Made by a program: the position numbers and the translations under genes. The notes beneath the pieces are model-generated. The model was not told the origin of the DNA and searched no databases. It saw nothing but the letters and a program-made list of their open reading frames with translations. A DNA stretch of 61,992 nt, counting the filler, from Candidatus Desantisbacteria bacterium CG1_02_49_89 (GTDB lineage: Bacteria; Desantisbacteria; UBA1551): assembly GCA_001871075.1 (NCBI GenBank). It is 7 parts of 7 records of this genome, joined end to end, with 100 filler letters (N's around TTAATTAATTAA, not from the genome) between each part and the next. Parts side by side here need not be neighbours in the genome. Positions count along the whole stretch, not along the records: positions 39,411 to 49,858 come from MNUP01000074.1; 6 more parts are not named here. One strand, given 5' to 3'. Shown piece by piece: positions 2,266-56,095 of the stretch (the stretch's first letter is position 1; every line of letters begins with the position of its first letter).

Positions 2266-3030
2266 CTACGGTTTTATACGCTCAACCTTATCAGATTCGG
2301 TCCAGCCTTTAAGGCCCTCCTCTTTAAGCCCAACCTCGCACCAGCCCCGGTTTTCTCTTAAAACAAGGACCTTCTTTCCTTCGGGAACGATGAACCCGGC
2401 TGAATATTCCATTCCGGGGCCTGACCTTACGCCGCAGTCAGATTTAACAACGATCGCGGATGGCTGGTTCACGTTATAGAGTTTAATACCCCACCAGATC
2501 CCTGAAATAGCTGCGGCGATCAATAGAATACGGATCGCAAGATTAAAGATTGCAGATTTTCTGAAAAACCAGACGCAGATAAAAGCGATTAAAAGAAAAT
2601 AACAGATCGAGAAGATGACCGTGAGCTCGCCTACGCTTAGAAGGTCATAAACGCCCTTAAGTGTTTCCATAACAGGATTTTTCTGTTTTTGCTCTGCCTG
2701 AAGCGTTGATTCCCTGGCGAATTCAAGGTTGAATTTCATATCCTCGTCCCTCGGGTCAAGGACCCTCGCGCGTTCATAGTTGAGGATAGCCGGGCCAGGC
2801 TTGCCTGCTTTGAAATAGGCGTTCCCAAGGTTGTAAAAAAGCTGAGCGGATCGCAGACCCTTTGATAGCAGGTCTTCGTACGAATTTATGGCAGAGCTAT
2901 AACTGCCTGCTTCATACTGCTTGTTCGCCTGCAGGAAAAGCTCATCCGGCCCCTGAGCGCAAGCGAGCTCAAAGCTCAAAGCTGAAAGCTGAAAGGTAAC
3001 AACAAGGAGTAGAAGCAATGCCTTTTTCAT
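2266..3030 (-). CDS. batE: BatE-like TPR + SH3 protein
   Basis: Signal peptide, TPR (LFYNLGNAYFK), two TM helices, C-terminal SH3-like domain (VRSGPG...GW). Start moved to MKKALL. Confidence 0.8.
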   Translation of the reverse strand: MKKALLLLLVVTFQLSALSFELACAQGPDELFLQANKQYEAGSYSSAINSYEDLLSKGLRSAQLFYNLGNAYFKAGKPGPAILNYERARVLDPRDEDMKFNLEFARESTLQAEQKQKNPVMETLKGVYDLLSVGELTVIFSICYFLLIAFICVWFFRKSAIFNLAIRILLIAAAISGIWWGIKLYNVNQPSAIVVKSDCGVRSGPGMEYSAGFIVPEGKKVLVLRENRGWCEVGLKEEGLKGWTESDKVERIKP

Positions 3031-3196
3031 ATTAAATACCTTTTTTGCCACGAATTTCCCCCCGCAGCTGCTGCGCAGCTCAACGCAGGGGCCTGCGCGC
3101 CAGAGCTGAGCGGATGGCGCTGCGGACGAAAGCACGAAATAGATCAGCCACGGATTTTAAACTCTATAAACTCTGTAAACTTGTAAACTTTGTAAA

Positions 3197-4987
3197 CTAT
3201 TTTCTAGTTTTCATGGTTTTTTCGAGCTTGTTGATTATCGCCTTCGTCCGTTCTGCAAGGCCGCGGACTTCCTGCTCCTGCGCCTGCAAAGGAGCGTACC
3301 TGACAAAATCGCACTTCGAGATGATATCAAGCGTTTCCGCGACCGTTTCCTGGTCAGTTCCGCGGTCCAGCAGGTTTTTTTCTATCATTGCCGATGTCAG
3401 GCCCGGAGCCGCGATATTGAGCTTGTCCGCGATGTACTGCGCCAGCACGCCGGAAATGGCGCAGGCGGTCTTAACAGGGTCCTGTTCTTTTATGCCCCTA
3501 AGGTTTTTCTCCGCGGTCCCGAAGGCCCTGTGCAGGCGCATATATTTTATATCGGTAATAAGGCGGTTGTACTGCCTGCTGTAAATGAATGAGACCAGTA
3601 AAGCAAGTAGCGGCAGCAATTGCAGGATAATGAACCAGGGCTGCTCGTAAACCGGGGTGGTTTTCCTTAAAAGCCTGCCGGAAGTTTTCAAATAACGGAT
3701 ATCCCTGCCCAGGAACTTGATGCCCTGGGGTGAAAATGCGGAAGGGAGCTGCGCCGCGGGCTTTGTGCTCGGAAGAGCGGTGATACTTACCGGGTTTGCG
3801 GAGACGGTGCGGTACGACCTGGATGCCGGGTCAAAAAAGCTTATTTCCACCGCGGGTATTGTAAGCTTGCCAGCTGTCTGGGGCACAAGCATTGTCGTGA
3901 AGGCCTTTGAGCCCTGAACAACATAATTTTCCTTTGTCACGTTCATTGACGGTATCGTGTTATATTTCCTGAACCCGGTAAGCCCTTCTATCGCTGGCTC
4001 TGAGATGGTCTTGATGTTGCCCACGCCGGAAATAGTGGCCTTAAGCGTTATTGGCTGGTTTGCCTCTACAGTCTGCTTGTCCGCGCTTGCTTCGATTCTG
4101 TACTGCCCGACCATCCCGGAAAAATTCCGCGGTTTTCCCTGGGGCAGGGGCAGCACCTTTATCTGGATGGGGTTTGTTGTAAGGGTGTGTGTTTTGCCCC
4201 TTGAAAAGAAAGACTGGAAAAAGCTGTCGTCAAAGAAACCGGTGGGGGGGGAGAAATCCTCCACGTTGCACACAAGGTTCGCGCTGCCGATCGTGTAGTT
4301 GCCTGCCGCGGTAGGGAAGAGCCCGGTTTTAAGCTCAACCACAAAATATCTCTGGCCGTTGACGACTTCGTAGTATGTTTTTTGCGGGGGAAGGTCCTCT
4401 ATCCAGAAACCGGTGTATTCCGGCTGTTTATACTGGGGATTGCTCATAAGGTTGATATTGCGGTAGAACTTGAATGAAAAGGTTATCTGCTCGTTAACAT
4501 ACGCGGTCTGCTTGTCAACAGTACCCGTGACGAATATATTGCCCGTGGCTCCTGGGGCAGGTGCCTGCTGCTGCGGAGCCTGGGCCTGGGCAGCTGCCTG
4601 CACGACCTCAATGCTTATGGGGGCTGAGGAAAAGGCCTTTCCCCCGACCTGCACGCTTATGGGCGGGATGGTGAACTTGCCTATCTTTTTCGGCGCGAGC
4701 ACGAAATTAAAGGTGACGGAAGACGAGATCTGGCCGTTCACGATGGAAATGTTCTGGCTCTGCCCGGAAGAATAGATGTTAAAATCAGGCAGGCCTGGTA
4801 TCTGGGGCTGGGGTATCTGGGAAACGTTGCCTGAAACAACGACGCGCAGGGTCACCTGCTGGTCAAGCGAGACCTGCGGCCTGTCAACGGAGGCGGATAT
4901 GCTTATGTCCTGCGCCCAGACAAGGTGAAAGCTCAAAGCTGAAAGCTGAAAGGTAACGACAAGGAGTAAAAGCAATACTTTTTTCAT
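3197..4987 (-). CDS. batD: BatD-family protein
   Basis: Signal peptide, repeated BatD Ig-like modules, C-terminal TM segment, bat operon context. Confidence 0.85.
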   Translation of the reverse strand: MKKVLLLLLVVTFQLSALSFHLVWAQDISISASVDRPQVSLDQQVTLRVVVSGNVSQIPQPQIPGLPDFNIYSSGQSQNISIVNGQISSSVTFNFVLAPKKIGKFTIPPISVQVGGKAFSSAPISIEVVQAAAQAQAPQQQAPAPGATGNIFVTGTVDKQTAYVNEQITFSFKFYRNINLMSNPQYKQPEYTGFWIEDLPPQKTYYEVVNGQRYFVVELKTGLFPTAAGNYTIGSANLVCNVEDFSPPTGFFDDSFFQSFFSRGKTHTLTTNPIQIKVLPLPQGKPRNFSGMVGQYRIEASADKQTVEANQPITLKATISGVGNIKTISEPAIEGLTGFRKYNTIPSMNVTKENYVVQGSKAFTTMLVPQTAGKLTIPAVEISFFDPASRSYRTVSANPVSITALPSTKPAAQLPSAFSPQGIKFLGRDIRYLKTSGRLLRKTTPVYEQPWFIILQLLPLLALLVSFIYSRQYNRLITDIKYMRLHRAFGTAEKNLRGIKEQDPVKTACAISGVLAQYIADKLNIAAPGLTSAMIEKNLLDRGTDQETVAETLDIISKCDFVRYAPLQAQEQEVRGLAERTKAIINKLEKTMKTRK

Positions 4988-11970: not shown

Positions 11971-12070
11971 NNNNNNNNNNNNNNNNNNNNNNNNNNNNNN
12001 NNNNNNNNNNNNNNTTAATTAATTAANNNNNNNNNNNNNNNNNNNNNNNNNNNNNNNNNNNNNNNNNNNN
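11971..12070. other. Artificial contig linker; also at 22976-23075, 32886-32985, 39311-39410, 49859-49958, 55996-56095
   Basis: Identical 100-bp N blocks with a central six-frame stop cassette TTAATTAATTAA. Confidence 0.98.
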
Positions 12071-15092: not shown

Positions 15093-18000
15093 ATGCTGAA
15101 AGCATATTTTGCAGAAATATTTAAGACTGCAAATCAAGGAGACGCAAGAGAAGAAAGTTTTTATCCTACTCTCAAGAAGCTACTTGAGGCATATGCTAAT
15201 TCAGTCAAAAAATCGGGTATTCAGGTAACATCCTTGCCAAAAAAGACAGAAGCCGGAAATCCAGACTTCAGAATATGGGATGGTAAACAGCATATAGTAG
15301 GATATATTGAAGCAAAAGCGCCAAATATTGAATATCTGGACCAAGTAGAAAGCTCAGAACAACTGGAGAGATATTTAAGAATATTTCCTAACGTAATCCT
15401 CACCAATTTTTTTGAATTCAGGCTTTACAGAAACGGAATTTTAACAGACAGAGTTCTTGTGGCAAGGTCGAATAACCTTTTTAAGCTTAAAACTATTCCG
15501 CCCGTTGAAAAGGAAACAGAATTCTTAAATTTGCTTGAAAAATTCTTTTCTTTTTCTTTACCTCAGGTTTATAACGCCAAAACACTGGCTGTGGAACTTG
15601 CAAAGAGGACACGATTTTTAAGAGATGAGGTAATCGCAGAGCAGTTGAAAGAAGAAGAATTCTCAGAAGATAATTATATTTTTGGTTTTTACAAAGCATT
15701 TAAGAAATATCTCATAAGCGGTCTTTCAAAAGAGGATTTTGCCGATCTTTATTCCCAAACTATTACTTATGGTCTTTTTGCGGCTCGCACTCGTACAGAA
15801 AATACATTCAATAGAAAGCTTGCTTATGACAATATACCATCAACCATCGGAATTTTACGAGATCTTTTCAAATTTATTTCCCTTGGAAATATACCGCAAC
15901 AAATGGAGTGGATAATTGACGATATCTCAGAAGTTTTATCAGTTACTGACGTCAAAAAAATACTCCATCAATATTTTCACGAAGGCAAAGGTAAAGATCC
16001 TATAGTTCATTTCTATGAAACTTTTCTTACTGAATATGACCCAAAAACAAGAGAAAAAAGAGGCGTTTATTACACACCGGAACCGGTTGTTTCCTATATC
16101 GTTCGTTCTTTGCATAAGGTTTTAAAAGAAAAATTTAATAGAGCAGAGGGTCTTGCAAACGAAAAAGTTACTATTTTAGACCCTGCAGCAGGAACACTTA
16201 CGTTTTTAACAGAAACAGCTAAAGTTGCATTGGAAGAATTTATTTCTAAATACGGTGAAGGAGGAAAAAGTAAATTTATAAAGGAGCATATACTTAAAAA
16301 CTTCTTTGCTTTTGAATTAATGATGGCTCCTTATGCTATAGGGCATTTAAAAATGTCTTTTCTATTAGAGGAACTCGGTTATAAATTGCAAAAAGATGAC
16401 AGGTTCAAACTTTACCTAACCAATACATTAGAAATGGAAGAGTTATCAGAGACTGCACTTCCTGGTATGGCTTCTCTTTCTGAAGAATCCCACCTTGCAG
16501 GAAAAGTAAAAAAAGAACAACCAATTCTTGTTATTCTCGGGAATCCTCCGTATCATGGTCATTCTTCCAATGTCGGAAAATGGATTTCTGATGAAATCAA
16601 GGTATATTATCAGGTAGACAGGAAACCTCTTAATGAAAGAAATTCTAAATGGCTTCGAGATGACTACGTGAAATTTATTCGTTTTGCTCAATGGAAGATA
16701 GAACAGGCAGGAGAAGGTATTTTGGGATTCATTACAAATCATAACTATCTTGATGCTCCCACCTTTAGAGGAATGCGTCAATCATTAATAAATAGTTTTA
16801 ATGAAATTTATATTTTAGACTTACATGGAAGTAGTCAGAAAAAATTAAAAGGTAGTTCTAAAGACGAAAATATTTTTAAAATTGAACAAGGAGTAGCAAT
16901 TGCTATTTATATAAAGAAAAAAAATTCAAAAGAATCTAATGTCTATCATTCAGAGCTCTGGGGATTAAGGAATGAAAAATTCGAATTGCTTTCTAATAAT
17001 GACATTTATAAAACGAAATGGAAGAAATTATCTCCAAAATCCGAATCTTATCTTTTTATCCCAAGAAATGAGAAGCTTTTAGGAAAATATGAAGATTATT
17101 TGAAAATAACTGACATTTTTCCTACAAATAGCGTGGGTATAGTTACTGCAAGAGACGAGTTTGTTGTTAATTTTGACAAAGAGAAGCTCAAACGCAACAT
17201 AAATCTTTTTTGTGATGAAAAAATGACTGACGAGATTATAGCTAAAACTTTTCACTTTGAAAATAAAATGGATTGGTTAAAACAAGCAAGGCAGGAACTA
17301 AGGAAAGATGAAGATTGGAAAGATACAGTTACTCAAATTTTATATCGTCCATTTGATATTCGCTGGATTTTATATCACGATTCAGTGGTTGAACGTTCTC
17401 GTAAAGATATAATGGGACATATGTTACAGGAAAATTTGGGATTAATAACTTGTCGTCAACAAAATCAAATAGGATTTTGTCACGCATTAATTGCAAAAGA
17501 TATAATAGAAGCATGCGTTGTTTCAAATAAAACAAGAGAAATAAATTATCTTTTTCCACTTTATCTATATCCCAAAAAAGAGAGTTTCAAGAAGCGAGCT
17601 TCAAGTAATATTATGATGCTTTTTGAACCCGATGTAGGTTATGGAGAAAAGAAATCAAATTTATCTTCAGTGTTGATTGAGCAATTAATAAAAGATTACA
17701 AAAAGACACCAGAGCCAGAACAGATTTTATATTATATTTACGCAGTGCTATATTCAGAAATTTACCGCAAGAAATACGCCGAATTTTTAAAAATGGATTT
17801 TCCAAGGATTCCATTTACAAAAGAATATAAAGTATTTGAGAAAATGTCTAAGATGGGTGAAAAACTTGTTGATATGCATCTGCTCAAATCAAAAGAACTT
17901 GATTCACCGGTTGCCAGATTACAAGGCAAGAATGATAATAAAATTGAGAAAGTTAAATATGACGAGAAAGAAAATAGAGTTTATTTTAATAACCTTCAAT

Positions 18001-22775: not shown

Positions 22776-23075
22776 GGGCGGGCTTGCCCGCCCTTTGTCA
22801 TTGCGAGTTCCCGTTTGTCGGGACGAAGCAATCTCAATTTCCATTGAAAAATAAGAACCTTCGTTTCACTCAGAACCTTGTTTTTCGTTGGTGAAGTCGT
22901 GGGAATGTCAAAATAAGGAAAATAAAAAATAGGGGCTGTCCCTATTTTGTCACTCGCCCCTTAAGGGAGAGGTCCNNNNNNNNNNNNNNNNNNNNNNNNN
23001 NNNNNNNNNNNNNNNNNNNTTAATTAATTAANNNNNNNNNNNNNNNNNNNNNNNNNNNNNNNNNNNNNNNNNNNN

Positions 23076-32831: not shown

Positions 32832-32985
32832 AACAGTGTCAAAGTATCAGAGTATCGTAGGGCAAGCCTTTAGGCTTGCGATCAGNNNNNNNNNNNNNNN
32901 NNNNNNNNNNNNNNNNNNNNNNNNNNNNNTTAATTAATTAANNNNNNNNNNNNNNNNNNNNNNNNNNNNNNNNNNNNNNNNNNNN

Positions 32986-39310: not shown

Positions 39311-39410
39311 NNNNNNNNNNNNNNNNNNNNNNNNNNNNNNNNNNNNNNNNNNNNTTAATTAATTAANNNNNNNNNNNNNNNNNNNNNNNNNNNNNNNNNN
39401 NNNNNNNNNN

Positions 39411-39755
39411 CACGACTATCCTTCTTCTATATTCATTGTTCCTCGTATATCCGGTTGCATCAATAACCCTTCCTTCTATGCTGGTTGGCGGAGTGGTGAT
39501 ATTGACAACAAAGTGCCCGTCTCCGAGGGTTTCACTGAAAGTAACGGGTGAGAGCCCGCTGGTGCAGTTCAACCGCCAGATGCCGTAGTCCACTCCTGCC
39601 TCTGCAAGATTGGTCGCCACCTTGTCAAGCCTGCTCCTCTTGCCCAGCCTGTACTGGGTAGTCGTGGTGAGAATCAGAGCTGTGCTTATCATTGCGATCA
39701 GCACTATTATTATTAAACCTGTGATGAGGGCGACCCCTTTTTCGCCAAGTTTCAT
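39411..39755 (-). CDS. PilX-like minor pilin (3' truncated)
   Basis: EKG|VALI hydrophobic helix without E5; A.NLAEAGV motif. Confidence 0.8.
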
Positions 39756-39763
39756 ACAACCCC

Positions 39764-40363
39764 CTAATTGCGCTTGTTGCGCAGCCTGACTGACGTAGAT
39801 ATAATTCCTTTCTGGAATTTACCGAAGCTGGCATGCCTGCGTATCCTGAGCGTTACCGTGCATTCCGTAATAAGAGATGTTGTTTCGCTGTTATAGGAAA
39901 ATATCGGCCTGGGATCCTCTGAACTGTGGTTATCTATGTAGGTACAAAGGGTCCAAAGAGAATTGGTGTCATTACCGCTCACCTTATCGCCCCAGCCGCG
40001 CCTCCTGCTTCCAGTTCCTTTTACCAGCCTCATTTTCAACTTCGCGGGATTTACTCCTGTATCCACAAAATACGTTATCGTATCACACCAGTAAATGGGA
40101 ATGCTGCCGTAGGTGTCCATATTGGGCAGAGACATCACCAGGGTATTCGGCGATGCGTATAACACGGCCTTTGCTTCTTTTATGTCTATGGTCATTTCCT
40201 GAATGACCGCCCTTAGATCCTGGTTTACCTTGGACTGCGTGTCTATCCATGAATATTGCCGATAGCTGAAGTTTATAAAAGTATACGCTCCCACAAGGAT
40301 TATGGAAAGGACCGCGAAAACTATCATCATTTCAAGTAAACTCATGCCTTTTTGGTCTGACAT
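39764..40363 (-). CDS. PilW/PulJ-like prepilin
   Basis: QKG|MSLLEMMIVFAV prepilin cleavage motif. Confidence 0.82.
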   Translation of the reverse strand: MSDQKGMSLLEMMIVFAVLSIILVGAYTFINFSYRQYSWIDTQSKVNQDLRAVIQEMTIDIKEAKAVLYASPNTLVMSLPNMDTYGSIPIYWCDTITYFVDTGVNPAKLKMRLVKGTGSRRRGWGDKVSGNDTNSLWTLCTYIDNHSSEDPRPIFSYNSETTSLITECTVTLRIRRHASFGKFQKGIISTSVRLRNKRN

Positions 40364-40377
40364 AGCTGCTTTCCTTG

Positions 40378-40773
40378 TCAGGGATTTATCCCCTGCCGTG
40401 TAATATATGTGACTATCGTATCGTGCATTATTATGTCGCTGGACCACTTTTTCCAGGACATATTTATAACAACCAGCTTCAGCCATCCCGAATCGGGGTC
40501 GACTTCAGTAATGGTCACAGTCCCTGCCGCATCCCGCAACTCCGGTTCGTTGGCCGTGAAAGTTTCGTTTGTTATAAGATAAAAACTCTCATCCCGTATG
40601 CTTTCCATTTTTTTATGCATTATCTCCGTTGCTATATCGTTCTCTTTCCCTCTCTGCCCGACAATGCCGCTCTGTTTCATCAGCTCCCCCACGCTCCAGA
40701 GCGCTATTGTAACAATAAGTATAGTCATCATAAGTTCTACCAAAGACATACCGCTTGAACTGTTTTTTTGCAT
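40378..40773 (-). CDS. PilV/PulI-like prepilin
   Basis: SG|MSLVELMMTILIV; SD GAGGAG. Confidence 0.82.
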   Translation of the reverse strand: MQKNSSSGMSLVELMMTILIVTIALWSVGELMKQSGIVGQRGKENDIATEIMHKKMESIRDESFYLITNETFTANEPELRDAAGTVTITEVDPDSGWLKLVVINMSWKKWSSDIIMHDTIVTYITRQGINP

Positions 40774-40857
40774 TTTCTCCTCAATAAAAAAGCCCATCTA
40801 CCGCGAATGGCGAGTTGCCAGCAGCAAATGGGCGAATATTCACATTTTCTATATGCG

Positions 40858-40972
40858 CTTTAGGCGGCCTGGCAACCCACCCCCTGTCTGTTCCGATCTT
40901 ATATCGTAGCAAGGGGGATTGGATCCATAACTTTGCGAGCCTCGGTTTCCCGGGGTTTGCTCTTTTCTAAAC
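40858..40972 (-). ncRNA. GEMM-I cyclic dinucleotide riboswitch (A20 variant)
   Basis: TTTAG-AAAAG-AGCAAACC-CCGG-GAAA-CCGA-GG-CTC-GCAAAG...GGATCCAA...GGTTGCCAGGCCGC-CTAAA; lies in the 5' UTR of the pilin genes. Confidence 0.75.
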
Positions 40973-40998
40973 AGGTTTCTTTTACCTTTTCACATACT

Positions 40999-41027
40999 AT
41001 TATAGCACAAATCCGCTTAAAAGTCAA
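40999..41027 (-). promoter_or_regulatory. Sigma70 promoter for the riboswitch-pilin transcript
   Basis: TTGACT-17 bp-TATAAT with extended TG. Confidence 0.75.
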
Positions 41028-41149
41028 GTGAAAAGTGAATGCTGGCATGCCCAGAACTGATTTCTACGAATTGAAAGAACGGATTCCTGCGGATCAAGAG
41101 ATCGAATTTAGACAGATAAGCAGTCTGTAACTCAGGCCTTTAGGCCTGA

Positions 41150-41632
41150 CTACAGCTCTTCTATCCGATACATCATGGAACCGGAAAATGAATACTCCTT
41201 GAAAGTATTAACCAATCTTTTTCTGACAGGATTATTAAATATGTATTTCGCGGTCTCAAGCAGCTCTTCTTCTTTTCTGAGGATATGGTCATAGTAACTT
41301 AAATGCCATAACTTTTTCTTAAATTGCCTGATAAACATAAAACCGCTTTTTTGCTTAAAATCCTTTATAACCCTTTTAAGATCTGATTTTGGGGATTTGC
41401 TTAAAAGCAACAAATGGAGATGGTCCGGCATAAAACAATAAGCAGCAATATTGAAATCGGGCAGAATGGTTTCTCCTAAAATTGATAAAACTTTATTCAC
41501 CGCCTCAAAAGAAGTAAAAACTTCTTGTCTTTTGCAGGTCAAAATAGTAATAAAATAAGCATGGGTTCCTTTATAATCAAATCCTTTGAGCCGGGGACGT
41601 TTTGGAAAAGGTTCAACGTGTTTTAGAGGCAT
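41150..41632 (-). CDS. REP-associated tyrosine transposase (RAYT, Y1 HUH), copy 1
   Basis: RLKGFDY..YFITILT, YCFMPDHLHLL (HUH), LW..SYYDHILR, YIFNNPVRK; flanked by REPs. Confidence 0.92.
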   Translation of the reverse strand: MPLKHVEPFPKRPRLKGFDYKGTHAYFITILTCKRQEVFTSFEAVNKVLSILGETILPDFNIAAYCFMPDHLHLLLLSKSPKSDLKRVIKDFKQKSGFMFIRQFKKKLWHLSYYDHILRKEEELLETAKYIFNNPVRKRLVNTFKEYSFSGSMMYRIEEL

Positions 41633-41641
41633 AGTATTTAA

Positions 41642-41814
41642 TCAGACCTGAAGGTCTGAGTTACGGTCAAACCTAAAGGTTTGAGTTACGATCAGACCTG
41701 AAGGTCTGAGTTACGGTCAAACCTAAAGGTTTGAGTTACGATCAGACCTGAAGGTCTGAGTTACGGTCAAACCTAAAGGTTTGAGTTACGGTCAAACCTG
41801 AAGGTCTGAGTTAC
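41642..41814 (-). repeat. Seven tandem REPs at 25-bp period, two alternating variants
   Basis: TCAGACCTGAAGGTCTGAGTTAC alternates with TCAAACCTAAAGGTTTGAGTTAC; the last unit is a hybrid. Confidence 0.93.
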
Positions 41815-41835
41815 GCACGACGCACGACTAATGAA

Positions 41836-42993
41836 TCAGCGCTTGCGTACGCGCCGCACGGCGGAAGCCACCGCGGGAACAACTCTTCTGTCCAGCGGAT
41901 TAGGAATTATATAATCGGGACGCAAATCCCTTTTGGATATCAGGCCGGCTATCGCGCGGCTTGCCGCCATCTTCATTTCCTCGGTTATCGCTTTTGCCCT
42001 TGAGTCAAGCGCGCCGCGGAAGATGCCCGGGAAACCAAGCGCGTTGTTTATCTGGTTAGGGAGGTTTGACCTGCCTGTTGCAACAACCCTTGCGCCTGCC
42101 TTTTTTGCTTCATCAGGCATTATCTCGGGAACCGGGTTTGCCAGCGCGAACACTATAGGCCCGGGCGCCATCGACCTGACCATTTCCCAGCTGACAAGCC
42201 CTGCCGCCGAAAGCCCTATAAAAATATCTTTGCCCCTGATCACCCTGCCAAGAGCGCCCTTCTCAAGGCGCAGGTTTGAGATCTCGGCGATCTCCTGTTT
42301 CGCGAAATTCATATGCTCGAACCTGCCCCTGTAAACAGCGCCCGCGCGGTCGCACAGCACTATGTTCTTAACGCCCGCGCTTATCAGGAACCGCGAAACC
42401 GCAATGGCGCCCGCTCCCGCGCCGTTGACCGCTATGCTGACCTCGGATATCTTCCTTCCCGTGATCTTCAGGGCATTCAGCAGGCCCGCAAGCACCACCA
42501 CGGCGGTGCCGTGCTGGTCATCGTGGAAAACAGGGATATCAAGCTGTTCTTTCAGTTTCCTTTCTATCTCAAAGCACCTGGGTCCAGAAATATCCTCCAG
42601 GTTTATTCCGCCGAACCCCGGCGAGATCATTTTTACGGTCTCGACTATTTTTTCAATATCGGTTGTCGCAAGACAGAGAGGATAAGCATCCACTCCGGCA
42701 AGGACCTTGAAAAGCACCGCCTTCCCTTCCATTACAGGCAGAGCTGCTTCAGCGCCTATATCTCCAAGCCCTAATACCGCTGTGCCGTCCGTAACGATCG
42801 CGACTGAGTTCCATTTATTGGTGTATTTATAGACATTGCCGCGGTCCTTATGGATCTCCTCGCAGGGAAACGCGACGCCCGGCGTGTACGCAAGCGCGAG
42901 GTCATGGCCGGTCTTCATCCTGACACGGCTCCTGATCTCTATGACACCGCGGTATTTTTTCCGATAAGCTAAGGATTCTTGTTTTAATGACAT
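41836..42993 (-). CDS. NAD(P)-dependent malic enzyme
   Basis: LAYTPGVA, DGTAVLGLGDIG, PVMEGKA, NLEDI, FHDDQHGTA, ALANPVPEI. Start set at MSLKQ because upstream sequence is REP DNA. Confidence 0.93.
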   Translation of the reverse strand: MSLKQESLAYRKKYRGVIEIRSRVRMKTGHDLALAYTPGVAFPCEEIHKDRGNVYKYTNKWNSVAIVTDGTAVLGLGDIGAEAALPVMEGKAVLFKVLAGVDAYPLCLATTDIEKIVETVKMISPGFGGINLEDISGPRCFEIERKLKEQLDIPVFHDDQHGTAVVVLAGLLNALKITGRKISEVSIAVNGAGAGAIAVSRFLISAGVKNIVLCDRAGAVYRGRFEHMNFAKQEIAEISNLRLEKGALGRVIRGKDIFIGLSAAGLVSWEMVRSMAPGPIVFALANPVPEIMPDEAKKAGARVVATGRSNLPNQINNALGFPGIFRGALDSRAKAITEEMKMAASRAIAGLISKRDLRPDYIIPNPLDRRVVPAVASAVRRVRKR

Positions 42994-42997
42994 ATAC

Positions 42998-43179
42998 TCA
43001 AACCTGAAGGTTTGAGTTACGTAACTCAGGGCTTTAGCCCTGATATTTCTCAAACCTTCCTCCTTTAAGATTGGCGGATCTTCGAAAAGGTTTGAGTTAC
43101 GTAACTCAGGGCTTTAGCCCTGATGGTTTCAGGCCTCCCTCCTTAAAGATTGGCGGATCTTCGAGAAGACCTGAGTTAC
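42998..43179. repeat. BIME-like cluster of inverted GTAA-REPs, two carrying loop insertions
   Basis: TCAAACC..GGTTTGAGTTAC / GTAACTCAGGGCTTTAGCCCTGA pairs. Confidence 0.88.
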
Positions 43180-43658
43180 AGCTTGTCTATTTGAAACATC
43201 ATGGAACCGGAAAATGGATATTCTTTAAATGAATTAACTAATCCTTTTCTGACAGGATTATTAAATATGTATTTCGCGGTCTCAAGCAGCTCTTCTTCTT
43301 TTCTGAGGATATGGTCATAATAACTTATATGCCATAACTTTTTCTTAAATTGCCTGATAAACATAAAACCGCTTTTTTGATTAAAATCCTTTATAACCCT
43401 TTTAAGATCTGATTTTGGGGATTTGCTTAAAAGCAACAAATGGAGATGGTCCGGCATAAAACAATAAGCAGCAATATTAAAATCCTGAAGGATAGTTTCT
43501 TTCAGAATAGATAAGACATTATTTACTGTTTCGGGTGAGATAAAAATTTCTTTTCTTTCATGTGTTAAAATAGTAATAAAATAAGCATGGGTTCCCGTAT
43601 AATCAAATCCTTTAAGACGCGGACGTTTAGGAAAAGGTTTATCGTGTTTTAGAGGCAT
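43176..43658 (-). CDS. REP-associated tyrosine transposase (RAYT), copy 2
   Basis: Paralog of 41150-41632 with the same motifs. Confidence 0.92.
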   Translation of the reverse strand: MPLKHDKPFPKRPRLKGFDYTGTHAYFITILTHERKEIFISPETVNNVLSILKETILQDFNIAAYCFMPDHLHLLLLSKSPKSDLKRVIKDFNQKSGFMFIRQFKKKLWHISYYDHILRKEEELLETAKYIFNNPVRKGLVNSFKEYPFSGSMMFQIDKL

Positions 43659-43667
43659 ATTATTTAG

Positions 43668-43924
43668 TCAAACCTGAAGGTTTGAGTTACGGAGACTGCG
43701 TAACTCAGGGCTAAAGCCCTGAAGTTTTCAAACCTGAAGGTTTGAGTTACGGAGACTGCGTAACTCAGGGCTAAAGCCCTGAAGTTTTCAAACCTGAAGG
43801 TTTGAGTTACGTATACTGCGTAACTCAGGGCTAAAGCCCTGAAGTTTTCAAACCTGAAGGTTTGAGTTACGTATCAGGGCTCCCTCCATAATGACTGGCG
43901 GGTCTTCGAAAAGCCCTGAGTTAC
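43668..43924. repeat. BIME-like array with 60-bp period (3 full units plus partial)
   Basis: TCAAACCTGAAGGTTTGAGTTAC-N9-GTAACTCAGGGCTAAAGCCCTGA-AGTTT repeated. Confidence 0.93.
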
Positions 43925-44985
43925 ATAATTTTGCTTATGATCGCGTCACCCATTTCCTTTGTGCCGACCGCGGAGGGGTCGTCGGGATCAGGCTTGAAAT
44001 CGTAGGTGAGATATTTTCCCTCCTCGATCACCCCGGCGACCGCGGTTTCAAGCTTACTTGCCGCTTCCTTCTCGCCCAGGTACTCAAGCATCATTGCCCC
44101 TGACAGGACAAGCGCCGCGGGGTCAACTTTATTCATGCCTTTGTATTTAGGGGCGCTGCCGTGTATTGCCTCGAAAATAGCCCCGTTCTCGCCGAAGTTC
44201 GCGCCTGGCGCGACTCCCAGCCCTCCCACAAGGCCCGCGCACAGATCGGAAATTATATCACCGTAAAGATTGGGCAGGAGAAGCACGTCGTACTGGACCG
44301 GCTTCTGCACTAATTGCATGCACATATTATCCACGAGGCGCTCTTCAAACAGGATACCGGGATATTTCTTCGCGACTTCCCTTGATACTTCAAGAAAGAG
44401 CCCGTCGGTGAATTTCATTATGTTCGCCTTCGTGACAGCGGTAACTTTTTTACGCCCGTTTTTGCGCGCGTATTCAAACGCAAATCTTGCGATGCGCTCC
44501 GTCCCTGTGCGGGATATCGGTTTTACAGAAATATTGGCGTCAGGGAATATTTTACCTTCAGCCCACTGGATGATCTCCTTCGCCTCTTTTGAGCCGGCGG
44601 CGAATTCAACGCCCGCGTACAGGTCTTCCGTGTTCTCCCTGATCACAACAAGGTCTATGTCCCTGAACAGCGACTTTACTCCCTTGTATGTCCTGCAGGG
44701 ACGCACGCAGGCGTAAAGGTTGAACAGCTTGCGCAGTTCAACGTTAACGCTCCTGAAACCTTTTCCTACGGGAGTGGTTATAGGTCCCTTAAGCGCCACT
44801 TTATTCTTTGTTATGGATTGCAGCAGGGTTTCCGGCAGGAGCGTGCCGTACTTTTTAAGGGCTTCCTCACCGGCCTGGTGAACATCCCAGTTGATCTGCA
44901 CCCCGGTGGCTTCTATGCACTTCCTTGCTACGTCGGTGACTTCCGGCCCGACCCCGTCCCCCGGGATCAATGTGATATTATACAT
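43921..44985 (-). CDS. Isocitrate/isopropylmalate dehydrogenase family (IDH-like)
   Basis: [59 protein letters not shown]. Confidence 0.9.
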
Positions 44986-45080
44986 TACAACTCCTTATTA
45001 AAGTATCAAAGTAAAAAGGTTTACAAGTTTACAGAGTTTAAAATTCGTGGAAATCCGTGTAAATTCGTGGTTAAATGTTT

Positions 45081-45572
45081 TTAAAAACTTCCGTGTTTTC
45101 GCAGATAGTTCGCAAGGCCGCCGGCGTTGAATATCCTGAGCATTATTTCTGGCAGCGGGTGCGCCCGCAGAATAACATTCCTCGTTTTATCAAAGATGAT
45201 CCCTTTTTTCAGGTCTATCTCAAGCGCGTCGCCCTGTTTTATTTTATCCGTTTCGCACTCAAGCAGCGGAAGGCCGATATTGACGGCGTTCCGAAAAAAA
45301 ATGCGCGCGAAGGATTTCGCGAGCACCGCTCCCACCCCCGCGTGTTTTACCGCGAGCGGGGCCTGTTCCCTCGAGGAACCGCACCCGAAATTGGAACCGG
45401 CGACCATAAAATCTCCCGGTTTCAGGTTTTTATAGAAATCCGGGCAAATGTCCTCCATTATGTGCTTTGCGAGCTCCTTCAGATCCAGGGTCTTGAACTT
45501 GTATTTCCCCGATATGATGTAATCCGTGTTTATGTCGTCCCCGAACTTGTGCGCTCGCCCTTTCAACAACAT
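45081..45572 (-). CDS. LeuD/HacB-type dehydratase small subunit
   Basis: GDDINTDYII, NFGCGSSREQA, SFARIFFRNAVNIG. Confidence 0.92.
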   Translation of the reverse strand: MLLKGRAHKFGDDINTDYIISGKYKFKTLDLKELAKHIMEDICPDFYKNLKPGDFMVAGSNFGCGSSREQAPLAVKHAGVGAVLAKSFARIFFRNAVNIGLPLLECETDKIKQGDALEIDLKKGIIFDKTRNVILRAHPLPEIMLRIFNAGGLANYLRKHGSF

Positions 45573-45865
45573 TACAGCTCCTTGTGCAGATGCAAACGGA
45601 TTAGAAGATCAGATTCATACAGATAAATCAGACCTGAAGGTCTGAGTTACAAATAGGACTTAATAAATCTCGCCCTTACTCCTAAAACACGCAAACCTTC
45701 CTCCACCAAGATTGGCGGATCTACGAAAAGGTTTGCCCTATCCGCCCCGACGTCCATCGGGGCGAAACCTCGCCCCAAAGGGGCGGGCGATAAAATTCCT
45801 TGCTGTTGCGTTGACACGTTGATACGCTGATACGCTGACACGTTTTTGAACTGGCTGCGCATCCA

Positions 45866-47470
45866 TCATTTCTGGATCGTGATCTCGACGCGGCGGTTCT
45901 TCGCCCTGCCTTCCTCTGTCGTGTTGGGTGCCGCGGGATTCTTGTCTCCGTAGCCTTTCCTGACAAGCCTTTCGCCGGGTATGCCCAGTTTGACAAAATA
46001 TTCCGCGACGCTCTCAGCCCTTGCCTGTGAAAGCTCCAGGTTGTTCTTATATTTTGATTTAAGCCTGCTGCTTATCGGCACGTTGTCAGTGTGCCCGTCG
46101 ATCCTGACAACGGTATTGGGATAAACGCCAAGGGCTTTTGCTATCTGTTCAAGAGTGCCGTAGCTTTCCTTTACTATTTCCGGGCTTCCGGAAGCGAACT
46201 GTATGGCGGTTTCCGTCGCAACGATTATGATCTTCTCCCTGTCTTCCTTTAAGGTTATCCCGCGCAGTTTCTTTAATTCATCCATGGCGTTGCGCTGCGC
46301 TTCCTCAAGCCTGCGCTTTTCTTCCTCAAGCCGCCTTTTTTCGTCTTCAAGCCTCTGCCTGTCCTCTTCCCACTTTTTCTTCTCGCTTTCAAACTTGCCC
46401 TTCTCGGCAAGCAGCCTTTCCATCTCGTCCTTTATGCGCCTTTCCTCCTCAAACCTTGTGCGCTCCTGTTTTTCCCACTTATACGCGTCCCCGAACAGGA
46501 AAGAAAGCGAAACCCACAGCCCGCCGCTCAGGTACTTGCTGGAAGTATGATATGGGATCACGACCGCGCAGTCGAGCTTCCAGTCTGTTTTTTCAACGCG
46601 GTTTGACTTTATGCCGCCGCCGAACGCGAACGTGAAATCGCCGTTGTCGCCGAACTTCATGCCGGCCCTCACGCCGACCAGGTTATCCTTCATCGCCTTT
46701 TTAAGCTCTTCGGTCTGTTTCAGCCAGGCTTCTCCCCCGAGGCTGAACTTGAACCCGTCTGACCTGGCTATGAAATCCGCGGAACCCGTTATGTCGTTGA
46801 ATATATTGAACTCATTTATCCTGTAGGTCAGGCCGCCCCTGAATCCCATTGCTCCCGCTCCTATGTCAATGAACGCGAGGGCAAAGCTCAGCCTTTCCAT
46901 TTTCGGTATATTGTCAAAATATATGGCTATGTCCGCGTTTATTCCCTGCGGGAACCTGTCGGTGAAAAACCTGCTGTCGCAGGCATTCGAGATCGTAGCC
47001 GTGTTGTCCGGATACTCCTTTGAACACATCTTGACCGTTAAACCGATAGAGGAATAAAAGTTCAGGAGCCTGCTGTAAGAAACACCCAGGGTATTTTCCC
47101 TGTACCTGCTGGAAATATCTACGCCCCTGCCCATGTATCCGATGCCAAGGTGCCCGAGGTTCTGTATGGGATGGACGTAACTGAAAAAGCCGTAAAGGCT
47201 TTCTCCGGATTCGACGGGATTATCCGAATTATGTGAAAACGAGGCGCCGGTGATCATGATCTCCGGCCTTTTGAGTTTTACAAGGCCCGCGGAGTTGAAA
47301 AAAATCGCGCTTGCGTCGTCTGACACGCCCATAAAAGCGCCGCCCATGCCCATAGCGCGCGCGCCGAAGCTGAAATCTTCGAAAGACGCGTAACAAACGT
47401 GTAACGTGTCACGTGTAACGTGTAAGGCAAGCAGTAATAAAAGAATTGATAAGATTTTTTTATATTTCAT
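45866..47470 (-). CDS. Outer-membrane barrel (PorV/FadL-like N-terminus) + coiled coil + OmpA C-terminal domain
   Basis: GARAMGMGGAF..DDASAIFFN; IDGHTDN, LSQARAESV, GRAKNRRVEI. Confidence 0.85.
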   Translation of the reverse strand: MKYKKILSILLLLLALHVTRDTLHVCYASFEDFSFGARAMGMGGAFMGVSDDASAIFFNSAGLVKLKRPEIMITGASFSHNSDNPVESGESLYGFFSYVHPIQNLGHLGIGYMGRGVDISSRYRENTLGVSYSRLLNFYSSIGLTVKMCSKEYPDNTATISNACDSRFFTDRFPQGINADIAIYFDNIPKMERLSFALAFIDIGAGAMGFRGGLTYRINEFNIFNDITGSADFIARSDGFKFSLGGEAWLKQTEELKKAMKDNLVGVRAGMKFGDNGDFTFAFGGGIKSNRVEKTDWKLDCAVVIPYHTSSKYLSGGLWVSLSFLFGDAYKWEKQERTRFEEERRIKDEMERLLAEKGKFESEKKKWEEDRQRLEDEKRRLEEEKRRLEEAQRNAMDELKKLRGITLKEDREKIIIVATETAIQFASGSPEIVKESYGTLEQIAKALGVYPNTVVRIDGHTDNVPISSRLKSKYKNNLELSQARAESVAEYFVKLGIPGERLVRKGYGDKNPAAPNTTEEGRAKNRRVEITIQK

Positions 47471-47837
47471 TGTTCCTCCCTCTGAAAACACTTATCAATT
47501 TACCAAGCATACTGCATATCCTGACACATTTTTCCCTTAATGAATCATGTTTTTCAACATCTATCTCATGCTGTTTAAGACATAAAGTAAGCATCGGGAT
47601 GCATTCTCTTGCCGAGTTAATAGCAAAGCCGTAAAATTGTATTTTTTCCTTGGGGGTTGCTTTACCGCTTCCTTCGGCAATATTGTTGGTTATCGACAGC
47701 GATGCTCTTCTCAGCTGGTCGCTAACTGAAAACTGGATATCGCGGGATGCCTTCTTCAGGATGGTAAAAATCTCATCTACAAATTCAAGCGCCAGTTGAT
47801 ATACCTCAAGTCTTTCAAAATCAAATTCGTATTTCAT
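47460..47837 (-). CDS. Four-helix-bundle protein (23S rRNA-IVP / Avd-like family)
   Basis: FERLEVYQLA, DQLRRASLSITNNIAEG, AINSAREC. Confidence 0.92.
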   Translation of the reverse strand: MKYEFDFERLEVYQLALEFVDEIFTILKKASRDIQFSVSDQLRRASLSITNNIAEGSGKATPKEKIQFYGFAINSARECIPMLTLCLKQHEIDVEKHDSLREKCVRICSMLGKLISVFRGRNNEI

Positions 47838-47875
47838 AGGTTTTCGAATTCCGCATTTCCTATTTTCTTCTTTTC

Positions 47876-47961
47876 CGTTACACGTTACACGTTTTGCATT
47901 TCCCGTTACACGTTACACGTTTTGCATTTCCCGTTACACGTTACACGTGACACGTTACACG
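47876..47961. repeat. Heptamer array (CGTTACA)n with 28-bp higher-order period; inverse array at 47398-47425
   Basis: Read directly; the two arrays are reverse complements bracketing the four-helix-bundle gene. Confidence 0.9.
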
Positions 47962-47965
47962 GTAT

Positions 47966-49366
47966 TTAAAGGAAGCTCCTCGGGTCCGTTATCCTGCCGG
48001 TGACGGCCGACGCTGCGGCAGTCGCCGGGGAAGAAAGATAAATGAACGCTCTGGGATTCGCCATCCTGCCCTTGAAATTGCGGTTTGCCGTGGAGAGAAC
48101 GACCTCCCCGTCCGCCGGAATGCCCTGGTGAGTTCCAACGCAGGGGCCGCATCCGGGATTAAGGACCGCGCCTCCCGACTTTACAAAGGCCTCGATGATC
48201 CCCTCTTTGAGGGCCCGCAAGAAGATCCCGCGCGATGCCGGAACGATAATAAGCTTAAGCTTCGGGTGTATTTTTCTATTCCTGAGGATCGCGGCCGCGA
48301 TCTTCAGGTCCTCAAATCTGCCGTTGGTACAGGTCCCTATGACAACCTGGTCTATTTTTGTCCCTTCAACACTGCCCAAAGGAACAACATTATCCACGGT
48401 ATGCGGTTTCGCTATCATCGGCCCTATCTTGCCCGCGTCAAACGTCAGTATCTTTTCGTATCTCGCATCTGCATCTGCTTTTACACCAGCAAGCCTACCC
48501 GCCCTGCACAAGGGCAGGGCGAGGTCTCGCCCCGACGTCCATCGGGGCGGAAAGGCTTGCCCTGCATTCTGCGCAGGCTGAAGCCTGCGGCTACCGTTGA
48601 CACGTTGACACGTTGCCTGCCCGCCAACGCTTTTTGGGTGGGACACGTTGACACGGTTTTTGTTCAGCCATGCCGCCGTTTTGCCGTCCGCTTCCATCAG
48701 GCCCGCCTTGGCTCCCATTTCAACAGCCATATTAGAAACGGTCAGCCTTGAATCAACGCTCAGAGAACTAATGGCAGAACCCGCGAATTCCACTGCCCGG
48801 TAGTTTGCGCCGTCCGCGCCGATCTTGCCTATGAGATAAAGGATCAGGTCCTTGCCAAACACTCCTTTTTTCAGCCTGCCGTTCATGACTATTTTTATTG
48901 TTTCGGGAATTTTCAGCCATATCCTGCCCGATATCATAGCGGCAGCAAGGTCAGTTGAACCGACGCCTGTCGAGAAGGCATTCAGCGCACCGTATGTGGT
49001 TGTGTGGGAATCAGCCCCTATGACCAGCATTCCGGGCAGAACGTTGTCTTCAGCCATGACCTGGTGGCATACGCCGCAGCCCACGTCATAAAGTTTGATC
49101 TTATGCCTGAGCGCGAACTCCCTCATCATGATATGCAGCCTTGAAACATCAATGCTGGGCGACGGGCTGTTGTGGTCAATGACCATGGCTATCCTGCCGG
49201 GGGAAAAAACTTTCTTTCCGCGCATTTCCTCAAACGCCTTTATGGCAAGCGGCGAAGTCCCATCCTGGCCCATAAGGAAATCCACCCTGCACACGGCTAT
49301 CCGGCCGGCAGAAACATCTATTCCCGAATGAGCACCCAATATTTTTTCCGCGATCGTCTTTCCCAT
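47966..49366 (-). CDS. LeuC/HacA-type dehydratase large subunit with ~55-aa repeat-derived insertion
   Basis: GKTIAEKIL, GADSHTTT, IGTCTNGR, GCGPCVG, STANRNFKGRM. Confidence 0.92.
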   Translation of the reverse strand: MGKTIAEKILGAHSGIDVSAGRIAVCRVDFLMGQDGTSPLAIKAFEEMRGKKVFSPGRIAMVIDHNSPSPSIDVSRLHIMMREFALRHKIKLYDVGCGVCHQVMAEDNVLPGMLVIGADSHTTTYGALNAFSTGVGSTDLAAAMISGRIWLKIPETIKIVMNGRLKKGVFGKDLILYLIGKIGADGANYRAVEFAGSAISSLSVDSRLTVSNMAVEMGAKAGLMEADGKTAAWLNKNRVNVSHPKSVGGQATCQRVNGSRRLQPAQNAGQAFPPRWTSGRDLALPLCRAGRLAGVKADADARYEKILTFDAGKIGPMIAKPHTVDNVVPLGSVEGTKIDQVVIGTCTNGRFEDLKIAAAILRNRKIHPKLKLIIVPASRGIFLRALKEGIIEAFVKSGGAVLNPGCGPCVGTHQGIPADGEVVLSTANRNFKGRMANPRAFIYLSSPATAAASAVTGRITDPRSFL

Positions 49367-49587
49367 TTTAAATGCAGTCATTTGTCATTAGTCATTAGTC
49401 ATTTGTCATTAGTAAAATCTAAATATTATCTAACGCTTTCCAACGATTCTCAACGATTTTATCGGAATGTAGTGGCAGACCTTGGTTTGCTTTATGTCGA
49501 GCAAGCTCGACCACTACAATAATCTGGCTTCATGCGGCAGGAATTAATGTCACGGGGTAGCAGTCCTATCATAAATTTCTTAAATAT

Positions 49588-49615
49588 ATAGTATCAGAAA
49601 TTTTAAAAATGTCAA
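49588..49615 (-). promoter_or_regulatory. Sigma70 promoter upstream of the leuC-like gene
   Basis: TTGACA-16 bp-TACTAT with extended TG. Confidence 0.65.
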
Positions 49616-49631
49616 TAAAAAAACGGGCTGG

Positions 49632-49858
49632 TGTTCCGCAACATTCAAAAGTATACTTTTGGGAACCTTAAAAGTATACTTTCTCATAAATGATATTCCC
49701 CGATTTTCTGCTCATCTTTTAACACAATAATCTTTTTGTTGGGGATAAGACACACGGTTACTTCCTGCTCTGGGAATCGCCCTACTTTCCAGATTCTGCC
49801 TTCGAGAGTACCCACCCCCCTCACCCTACCCCTCTCCCTCGAGGGGAGAGGATAAAGG
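49632..49858 (-). mobile_element. Right part of the TGT-ended MITE, truncated by contig end
   Basis: TGTTCCGCAACATTCAAAAGTATAC with a second AAAGTATAC 23 bp later; interior homologous to 11812-11970. Confidence 0.7.
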
Positions 49859-50059
49859 NNNNNNNNNNNNNNNNNNNNNNNNNNNNNNNNNNNNNNNNNN
49901 NNTTAATTAATTAANNNNNNNNNNNNNNNNNNNNNNNNNNNNNNNNNNNNNNNNNNNNGAGTGAAAAAAGTTAATTATTTAAATAAAATCCCGTCTTCTC
50001 AATCTCTCAATCTTAAATCTTACAATCTTACAATTTATTTTATTGCCTCGCCGCCCGGA

Positions 50060-55983: not shown

Positions 55984-56095
55984 ACTGCGACCTCANNNNN
56001 NNNNNNNNNNNNNNNNNNNNNNNNNNNNNNNNNNNNNNNTTAATTAATTAANNNNNNNNNNNNNNNNNNNNNNNNNNNNNNNNNNNNNNNNNNNN

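Follow-up and report, generated by a model that had tools for sequence, protein, structure and literature searches.

The question raised by the locus described here is how a conserved enzyme gene can come to carry, in frame, a stretch of coding sequence that is made of dispersed genomic repeats. The gene, whose product is a large subunit of the LeuC/HacA type within the aconitase superfamily, lies in a stretch of DNA of 61,992 nucleotides from Candidatus Desantisbacteria bacterium CG1_02_49_89 (GCA_001871075.1), an uncultivated bacterium of groundwater; this stretch is referred to below as the window. The window consists of separate contigs joined by spacers of the form N44-TTAATTAATTAA-N44 (positions 11971-12070, 22976-23075, 32886-32985, 39311-39410, 49859-49958 and 55996-56095), and arguments from gene neighbourhood are invalid across these spacers. 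The insert-bearing gene is located on a single contig of 10,448 bp (C23, window 39411-49858) of an assembly that comprises 150 contigs, 2.48 Mb and 48.9% G+C. The best explanation, to which a probability of roughly 0.8 is assigned, is that small mobile repeats, themselves non-coding, have really accumulated in frame and step by step in a surface linker of the protein, where they are tolerated.

Read on the minus strand, the insert begins with an array of (CGTGTCAA)n octamers that is interrupted by a hairpin element, referred to as B. The array is followed, after 2 bases, by a repetitive extragenic palindrome (REP), C, and after 6 further bases by a second one, REP D, whose loop is occupied by a twin-hairpin element, E (Table 1). 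When B is taken out, the two arms of the array join into exactly four CGTGTCAA units and the 8-nt period is restored, so that B is nested in the array without disturbing its period. An unsplit copy of REP D, GTAGGGCAAGCCTTCAGGCTTGC, is found on contig C31. The first-pass annotation of this DNA had described a split array arm, REP C and a REP D split by the twin hairpin, and all of these parts lie on the minus strand where it had placed them. Its account of five nested elements is correct as to the number, but nesting applies to just two of them: B lies in the array and E in REP D. Similarly, the insertion of about 55 amino acids proposed there is in frame and comprises 167 nt, or about 56 codons. 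Relative to orthologues without an insert, however, the protein is longer by a net 47-50 residues, as a short original linker of about 9-13 residues has been replaced by the repeats. When the insert is folded as single-stranded DNA, a stability of -50.2 kcal/mol is obtained (z = -4.82), which none of 200 shuffled sequences reaches, and C, D and E account for the stems in the predicted structure. Inteins, introns and programmed frameshifting were set aside, as the insert is in frame and dispersed repeats make up the whole of it; no test was aimed at them.

Table 1. Positions of the LeuC gene, the parts of its insert and neighbouring genes, counted along the window.
Feature	Position	Strand	Basis or remark
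LeuC/HacA-type large subunit gene (aconitase superfamily)	47966..49381	-	Open reading frame of 471 codons; profile and PDB matches
Whole repeat-encoded linker, 167 nt, codons 243-298	48489..48655	-	Between two profile-matched blocks
Left arm of octamer array, CGTGTCAACGTGTC	48642..48655	-	Pattern match
Hairpin element B, 27 nt, inside array	48615..48641	-	Genome copies; no target duplication
Right arm of octamer array	48597..48614	-	Pattern match
REP C, GTAGCCGCAGGCTTCAGCCTGCG	48572..48594	-	GTAG head, 7-bp stem and TTCA loop; genome copies, predicted stem
REP D, left arm	48552..48565	-	GCAG head here, GTAG in other copies; pairs with 48489-48497
Twin-hairpin element E, 54 nt, in REP D loop	48498..48551	-	Genome copies; sister P0002 without these 18 codons
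REP D, right arm	48489..48497	-	Pairs with 48552-48565
LeuD-type small subunit gene	45081..45572	-	PF00694 match at C23:5860-6024; open reading frame
REP-associated tyrosine transposase (RAYT) gene	43176..43658	-	NF047646, 99.7 bits (cut-off 80)
Second RAYT gene	41150..41632	-	NF047646, 94.7 bits (cut-off 80); PF01797 match

The true start of the gene is likely the ATG at 49366, which gives a protein of 466 aa, and this is also the length of one NCBI-sourced record of the protein. The product matches PF00330 (E 2e-98, 330.8 bits against a cut-off of 28.7), NF001614 (552.4 bits against 385) and TIGR01343 (536 against 386), as well as the Methanocaldococcus structures 4kp2 and 4kp1 in the PDB (E 1e-112 to 1e-114). 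It scores below the cut-offs of the isopropylmalate isomerase equivalog TIGR02083 (LEU2; 463 against 611) and of the homoaconitase equivalog NF040615 (HacA_Meth; 467 against 550), both scores being reduced because the insert splits the alignment. All profiles align in two blocks, the first of which begins at about residue 5 and ends at about residue 243-245, while the second begins at about 297-305 and extends to about 470. The spacer between the blocks comprises about 60 residues, as compared with 14-20 in solved homologues.

The frame and the iron-sulfur cysteines downstream of the insert had been described as intact, and this description is borne out. The 471 codons contain neither stops nor frameshifts, and the three cysteines that bind the 4Fe-4S cluster, C351, C411 and C414 (C...CxxC), do not vary among the 11 aligned sequences; a long list of catalytic-core residues is likewise invariant. 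The AlphaFold (AF2) model, calculated from a 36-row alignment, has a mean predicted local distance difference test score (pLDDT) of 82, and its residues 240-291, which correspond to the insert, fall below 50 between two confidently folded halves. In a Foldseek comparison the template modelling score (TM-score) of this model to both 4kp1 and 4kp2 is 0.93, normalised by target length. The model, one of the checks proposed at the outset, predicts the insert to be a disordered loop inside an otherwise intact fold.

Because a repeat-rich insert invites errors of assembly, the independent sequence records of the locus were compared. The genome is repeat-rich, its contigs end in repeats, and the Logan contigs of two runs, X3 and X8, break inside the octamer array; these observations are what would be expected if short-read assemblers had stitched repeat copies into the LeuC contig. 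However, a 751-nt Logan contig from run X2, which belongs to another study, spans positions 48066-48816 and bridges the whole insert with 0 differences, and in X3 and X8 the two contigs that meet inside the array overlap by 29 nt and show 0-1 differences each. Two further metagenome contigs agree as well, one of them with an exact copy of the gene (L023) and the other with 2 differences in 1416 bases, both synonymous (L024). The insert peptide is identical in all eight linker-covering members of the 90% protein cluster, whose records come from several sources and of which one sequence is seen on 15 contigs. At least 0.79 of the sampled words is contained in 20 DNA runs from groundwater and aquifer metagenomes, and the stack is in frame. 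Neither a frameshift nor a misassembly was found in this comparison, and misassembly can be excluded for practical purposes.

The three contig joints listed for four runs yielded no presence or absence alleles, as none of them lies at an element boundary; contigs of this kind drop rare variants. Two irregular records of the same gene should also be mentioned. One public assembly splits it into products of 54 aa and 406 aa near residue 55-65 (P0125/P0126), and another runs into unrelated sequence after about residue 365 (P0127). Both breaks lie outside the insert and may be assembly faults or naturally broken alleles.

The stepwise character of the insert emerges from its relatives. The clade around the window LeuC contains 8 sequences, and its tree was calculated without the linker columns. 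Repeats are present in the linker of 6 of these 8 orthologues and of both genes of the paralogous lineage, but in none of 7 outgroup proteins, and their content differs from gene to gene. Outside the linker, the closest relative, P0002 (441 aa), shares 380 of 405 aligned residues with the window protein (94% identity). Its linker, ..NRVKESKSQRVKVE NCSGRIHATSF VGQAF RLAV.., corresponds to an array of another unit, a REP and an unsplit REP D. The array unit, deduced from the peptide, is AGAGTCAA, as compared with CGTGTCAA in the window gene. Where the window protein reads ..AGQAF[18 aa]RLAGV.., P0002 reads ..VGQAF|RLAV..; it lacks exactly the 18 codons of E and also the 9 codons of B. As REP D is unsplit in P0002, the site can be regarded as the empty site for E, with REP D first and E second. 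An alignment of orthologues for intermediate states had been suggested as a check, and P0002 provides such a state. Judged from this protein comparison, E arrived later than REP D, inside its loop.

The remaining orthologues show other states of the same linker. In P0003 an array is combined with another hairpin, the DNA of L025 shows GCACGAC heptamers in an array, accompanied by a hairpin resembling B, P0005 and P0006 contain REPs, and P0004 and P0007 have no insert. In the second LeuC gene of the window genome (C29 ~17434-17480; L021:672-715), the homologous linker is occupied by six AAATTGW heptamers that encode the peptide KLKIVNCKLKIVNL. In the orthologue of this second gene in G001, a genome of the same order but of a sister family, the same linker contains a REP together with a 30-nt hairpin that is repeated twice, and one more hairpin. 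The linker between the two conserved halves of LeuC accepts foreign sequence in this lineage, and differing material has thus come to occupy the same site on many occasions. The window allele is the richest state seen. A protein cluster that is 66% identical to its product bears the NCBI name Candidatus Desantisbacteria. Among the best 80 loci of the metagenome scan, the window allele occurs twice and is accompanied by one 65% relative, L025; among the best 80 loci of the genome scan there is no close relative.

The first-pass annotation had gone further and suggested that a permissive linker collects all the repeat families of the window. The permissiveness is supported by the counts given above, but the word all is an overstatement, since the GTAAC-headed REPs beside the RAYT genes and the GTAGGGGCG-type hairpins are not part of the insert. 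Hairpin B, in turn, has no other good copy in the window, and its copies lie elsewhere in the genome.

Other genes of G001 were also seen to carry repeats. In the regions L002:824-1492 and 2867-3697, its LeuD has an N-terminal extension with a tandem SGRVSAPGLC, present twice, and the gene upstream of LeuC contains QDLPGR four times. Repeat-derived coding sequence is therefore common in G001 too, with other families.

Every part of the insert recurs elsewhere in the assembly. In the window, the REP C pattern is matched 2 times (0 expected), a 16-mer of the array 12 times (0.02 expected) and the head of REP D 6 times (0.55 expected), so that a repeat composition arising by chance is excluded. 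The octamer array type of LeuC occurs at 5 further loci in the window. In a blastn-short comparison with the assembly, the gene flanks have a depth of 1, as compared with 11 for B, 18 for C, up to 96 for the array and 63-114 for the first hairpin of E. At a coverage of at least 80%, the same method finds 11 genome copies of B, 21 of C (2 of which lie inside long open frames) and 11 of E, and a short-word search gives a handful of copies of REP D. The first-hairpin module of E is present 57 times in the window genome and 0 times in a reversed-pattern control; it was not found in G001, which is 87% complete, so that it cannot be called absent there.

The genomic copies of B and E are distributed in a characteristic manner. 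An array of the CGTGTCAA type adjoins 9 of the 11 B copies on at least one side, and 8 of the 11 E copies lie within arrays of heptamers or octamers, among which at least four different units are represented. B and E are therefore strongly biased towards arrays and REP loops. In all copies inspected by eye (about 8 of B and 6 of E), the array period continues across the element, and it follows that no target duplication took place. The ends of both elements are complementary (CCGCCC...GGGCGG). MITEs, the miniature inverted-repeat transposable elements, combine such inverted ends with a target-site duplication, and none accompanies B or E in the copies inspected. A fixed tetra- or pentanucleotide target was not found for either element among the genome copies. 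Two copies of the B core, at G000:C100:8298 and C100:12386 of the window genome, adjoin a GTAGGGCAAGCC REP head and no octamer array, which indicates that B is not strictly array-bound.

The insertion of repeats into coding sequence is not restricted to LeuC. When repeat stretches are defined by 14-mers that occur at least 6 times, they make up 5.4% of the assembly. Of 2142 such stretches with a length of at least 20 nt, 172 lie at least 40 codons inside open reading frames (ORFs), and internal repeat stretches are contained in 120 of 1645 non-overlapping ORFs of at least 150 codons, a figure that is an upper bound because it includes a multi-copy protein family and some doubtful ORFs. From 60 repeat-bearing ORFs, 20 were picked by hand for a recognisable enzyme context, and all 20 proved to be conserved enzymes by their Pfam domains; among them are PurL, Lpd, Ddl, fumarase, LeuS, ValS, CarA, CarB, a ThrC-like protein, UvrA, IspG, HisF, a MurF-like protein and ArgS. 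In other genes, E is read in at least four combinations of frame and orientation. Consequently, it is the DNA that is conserved and not the peptide.

The length of the elements appears to matter for their presence in genes. Both B (27 nt) and E (54 nt) have a length that is a multiple of three (3n), and none of their six frames contains a stop. Of the 34 copies in the twin-hairpin superfamily, 33 were measurable, and a 3n length applies to 23 of these. The 8 copies inside long open frames are all 3n long, and none of the 10 copies of other lengths lies in such a frame. Other subfamilies of twin hairpins measure 47-55 nt, so that a 3n length is no property of the superfamily as a whole. A more general 3n test, applied to hairpins that interrupt 7-8-nt arrays, gave 9 candidates under strict settings, none of them usable, and 13 under laxer settings, most of them from one tandem locus on contig C66; the test is uninformative because the array arms are too short and degenerate.

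These observations can be combined into a sequence of events. The octamer array and the two GTAG-type REPs would have occupied the linker first, and later elements would have landed in the earlier ones. The REPs may have been spread by the RAYT-type single-strand (Y1) transposases of the genome. B and E would then have entered single-stranded or hairpin-prone DNA, such as arrays and REP loops, without target duplication; alternatively, they may have been copied in by gene conversion between repeat copies. By either route, the earlier repeats would have served as landing pads for the later ones. Selection would presumably remove insertions that shift the frame or bring in stops, and stop-free combinations of 3n length would survive in dispensable loops. 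The 56 encoded residues would represent a disordered loop without a function of its own. As B and E sit in earlier repeats, growth of the stack is due not only to the permissiveness of the linker but also to the repeats acting as landing pads. The earlier suggestion that selfish DNA has given rise to new coding sequence agrees with this picture, since the repeats, as judged from the nucleotide sequence, now form part of the reading frame.

Several observations weigh against this interpretation. An open frame is by itself unremarkable, as 22% of the shuffled inserts are open in the frame used. The empty site for E is read from a protein record, that of P0002, and an empty site for B was not seen in LeuC, the array of the sister gene having a different unit. 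The hypergeometric p of about 0.035 for the 3n bias of intragenic twin hairpins was obtained with crude element boundaries and small numbers. No RAYT gene was tied to REP C or D in a check of flanking repeats that covered the first RAYT gene in Table 1. For E, the target is no more than a loose A^C, present in 8 of 11 copies. Both copies of E that are embedded in REP D share a ..ACGTCGGGG loop variant that the array-embedded copies lack, a pattern equally compatible with gene conversion, joint movement and independent insertion. The genome also has a paralogous LeuC/LeuD pair, so that a loss of function of the window LeuC would not necessarily be lethal. Finally, the sole RNA run, which contains 0.04 of the sampled words, yielded 9 short pieces, none with an identity of at least 99%; these pieces therefore come from relatives, and the run bears on expression of the gene in neither direction.

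The shared loop variant is one of three features that favour an origin of the nested pieces by gene conversion between dispersed REP and array copies, in which no enzyme dedicated to B or E would be involved. A second composite of D and E with the same junctions is present at C7:25259-25332 and could have been the donor of the D copy in LeuC, and the difference in array unit between the sister genes (CGTGTCAA and, as deduced, AGAGTCAA) suggests homogenisation. However, E also occurs in arrays of four or more unrelated types, at junctions that preserve the period, and this calls for either many separate donors or true insertion; and the two composites are only 89% alike. Gene conversion as the source of the nested pieces is on the whole unlikely, but it retains an appreciable chance of being correct.

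The existence of the paralogous pair on contig C29 also raises the possibility that the window LeuC is a decaying pseudogene, on which repeats pile up since the paralogue does the work. The separation of the window LeuC from LeuD by two unrelated genes is in line with such decay. A decaying gene is nevertheless difficult to reconcile with 471 codons free of stops and frameshifts, with invariant cluster cysteines and catalytic core, and with population differences that are synonymous in 2 of 2 cases. In the tree, its terminal branch (0.024) is shorter than that of P0002 (0.047), the sister without B and E. Moreover, the paralogue itself has a heptamer array in the same linker, and inserts of this kind are carried by clearly essential genes (LeuS, ValS, CarAB, PurL and Ddl). 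Decay of the gene is accordingly regarded as improbable.

The strong predicted secondary structure (z = -4.8) and the recurrent presence of inserts at one and the same linker of two paralogous lineages could also point to an adaptive feature, either a docking or regulatory loop of the protein or a cluster of hairpins that makes the ribosome pause at the domain boundary. The content of the linker, however, is wholly different between close relatives, and 2 of the 8 clade orthologues do without any insert. The peptide is predicted to be disordered, and the elements are read in different frames and orientations elsewhere, which argues for conservation of the DNA rather than of the peptide. An adaptive role of the insert is hence very improbable, and the preferred explanation remains the tolerated, stepwise pile-up of mobile repeats.

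Repeats within genes have been described in several other systems. REPs of the GTAG/CGTC type are reported to lie in frame inside conserved genes, where clusters of them encode 43-82 amino acids, and recB of two Xanthomonas species is described as containing different REPs at about one site (Di Nocera et al., 2013, PMC3733652). The LeuC insert resembles these cases in its GTAG-headed palindromes, in their in-frame position within a conserved gene and in the presence of RAYT genes in the genome. REP C corresponds to the definition of GTAG-tagged REPs (GTAG followed by an imperfect palindrome of 20-40 nt), and D has GTAG in its other copies. Unlike the intragenic REPs, the LeuC stack combines four to five families that are unrelated to one another (an array of octamers, two REPs and two hairpins without a tag), two of its elements are nested, alternative states are present in orthologues and in the paralogue, and the host belongs to a candidate phylum. 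Classical REPs are described as exceeding 100 copies per genome (PMC2817692). The copy numbers of C and D are far below this figure, and the genome holds many small families.

A second comparison is offered by the Rickettsia palindromic elements (RPEs), which are described as abundant selfish palindromes found in frame in many unrelated metabolic genes as well as between genes, and as being thought compatible with the fold and function of the protein (PMC10969869, PMC1779305). The LeuC repeats are similar in that they lie within a conserved ORF, stops are avoided and orthologues without the insert exist. RPEs are, however, single units of 100-150 bp with a conserved peptide, whereas the LeuC units measure 23-54 nt, vary in the frame and orientation in which they are read, and are stacked and nested. 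REPs can themselves be targets of insertion sequences (IS): IS1397, ISKpn1, IS621, ISPpu9 and ISPpu10 are reported to enter always at the same point of a REP, one of them with formation of a direct repeat (PMC1525189). E likewise uses a REP as landing site, but it is a 54-nt non-coding pair of hairpins that causes no duplication, unlike these insertion sequences with their own transposase.

Both IS200/IS605 elements and the RAYT/REP system use single-strand "peel and paste" transposition, with hairpin ends and without target duplication. B and E share the hairpins and the absence of duplication, and Y1 (HUH) genes are present in the genome; in contrast to IS200/IS605, no defined target of 4-5 nt was found for B or E, and no Y1 gene was tied to them. 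In cyanobacteria, short tandemly repeated repetitive (STRR) sequences form dispersed heptamer arrays, some of which are intragenic. Dispersed 7-8-nt arrays are common to both cases, whereas in the present genome the units and the lineage are different and the arrays host hairpin elements. Among the matches listed for a literature search with "Desantisbacteria" and "repeat", no publication deals with genomic repeats as judged by title and the beginning of the abstract.

As intragenic repeats have already been published (REPs and Rickettsia RPEs), the LeuC case illustrates a familiar principle well rather than establishing a new one. Its value lies in being a clear and extreme case of stepwise growth of a linker from selfish DNA, in which the order of events can be read from the nesting. 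The empty site in the sister gene, together with the alternative fillings in orthologues and the paralogue, forms a natural series that could be used to address the tolerance of an Fe-S dehydratase for disordered sequence and the target choice of tiny hairpin elements. The locus is also a warning for annotation: length differences and split hidden Markov model (HMM) hits in conserved enzymes of this lineage are often repeat insertions and not errors. A bolder and rather doubtful proposal is that B and E represent a class of hairpin elements that has not been described before, very small (27-54 nt) and without target duplication. Such elements would seek out DNA that is single-stranded and prone to slippage, for instance short tandem arrays and the loops of REPs, and their 3n length and six open frames would allow them to colonise coding sequence, so that protein linkers of this lineage would grow routinely by repeats recruiting repeats. 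If this proposal were true, new protein sequence, disordered to begin with, would arise by a route that reinforces itself.

The surroundings of the gene were considered within its own contig. The LeuD-type gene lies 2.4 kb downstream of LeuC on the same strand and is likely its partner. There are 2 matches to PF00694 in the genome, one of them on the LeuC contig, and a second, paralogous LeuC/LeuD pair is present on contig C29. Between LeuC and LeuD of the window locus lie two genes (window 45866-47837), a TIGR02436 four-helix-bundle gene and a gene for an OmpA-like protein of 541 aa, part of which is a long, charged segment resembling a coiled coil. LeuD follows directly after LeuC in G001 and G026, unlike at the window locus. 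A gene similar to isopropylmalate and isocitrate dehydrogenases also follows LeuC on the same strand, as LeuD does.

Both RAYT genes on the LeuC contig exceed the NCBIfam equivalog cut-off, and PF01797 has 10 matches in the genome. The first RAYT gene in Table 1, whose flanks were read, is bordered by GTAAC-headed REPs with a sequence other than that of C and D. Upstream of it (window 43660-43930) lie four tandem units of 60 nt, each composed of two REPs, GTAACTCAAACCTTCAGGTTTGA and TTCAGGGCTTTAGCCCTGAGTTAC, and related REPs also occur after the gene (window 43040-43175). A near-duplicate of this RAYT gene and its flank is found 2 kb away, with 88% identity over 528 bp, and a malic-enzyme gene lies between the two copies. 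The first 20 or so codons of the malic-enzyme ORF (window 41836-43053), which include ..ALSYVTQTFRFEY.., look REP-derived, and its start may be located downstream.

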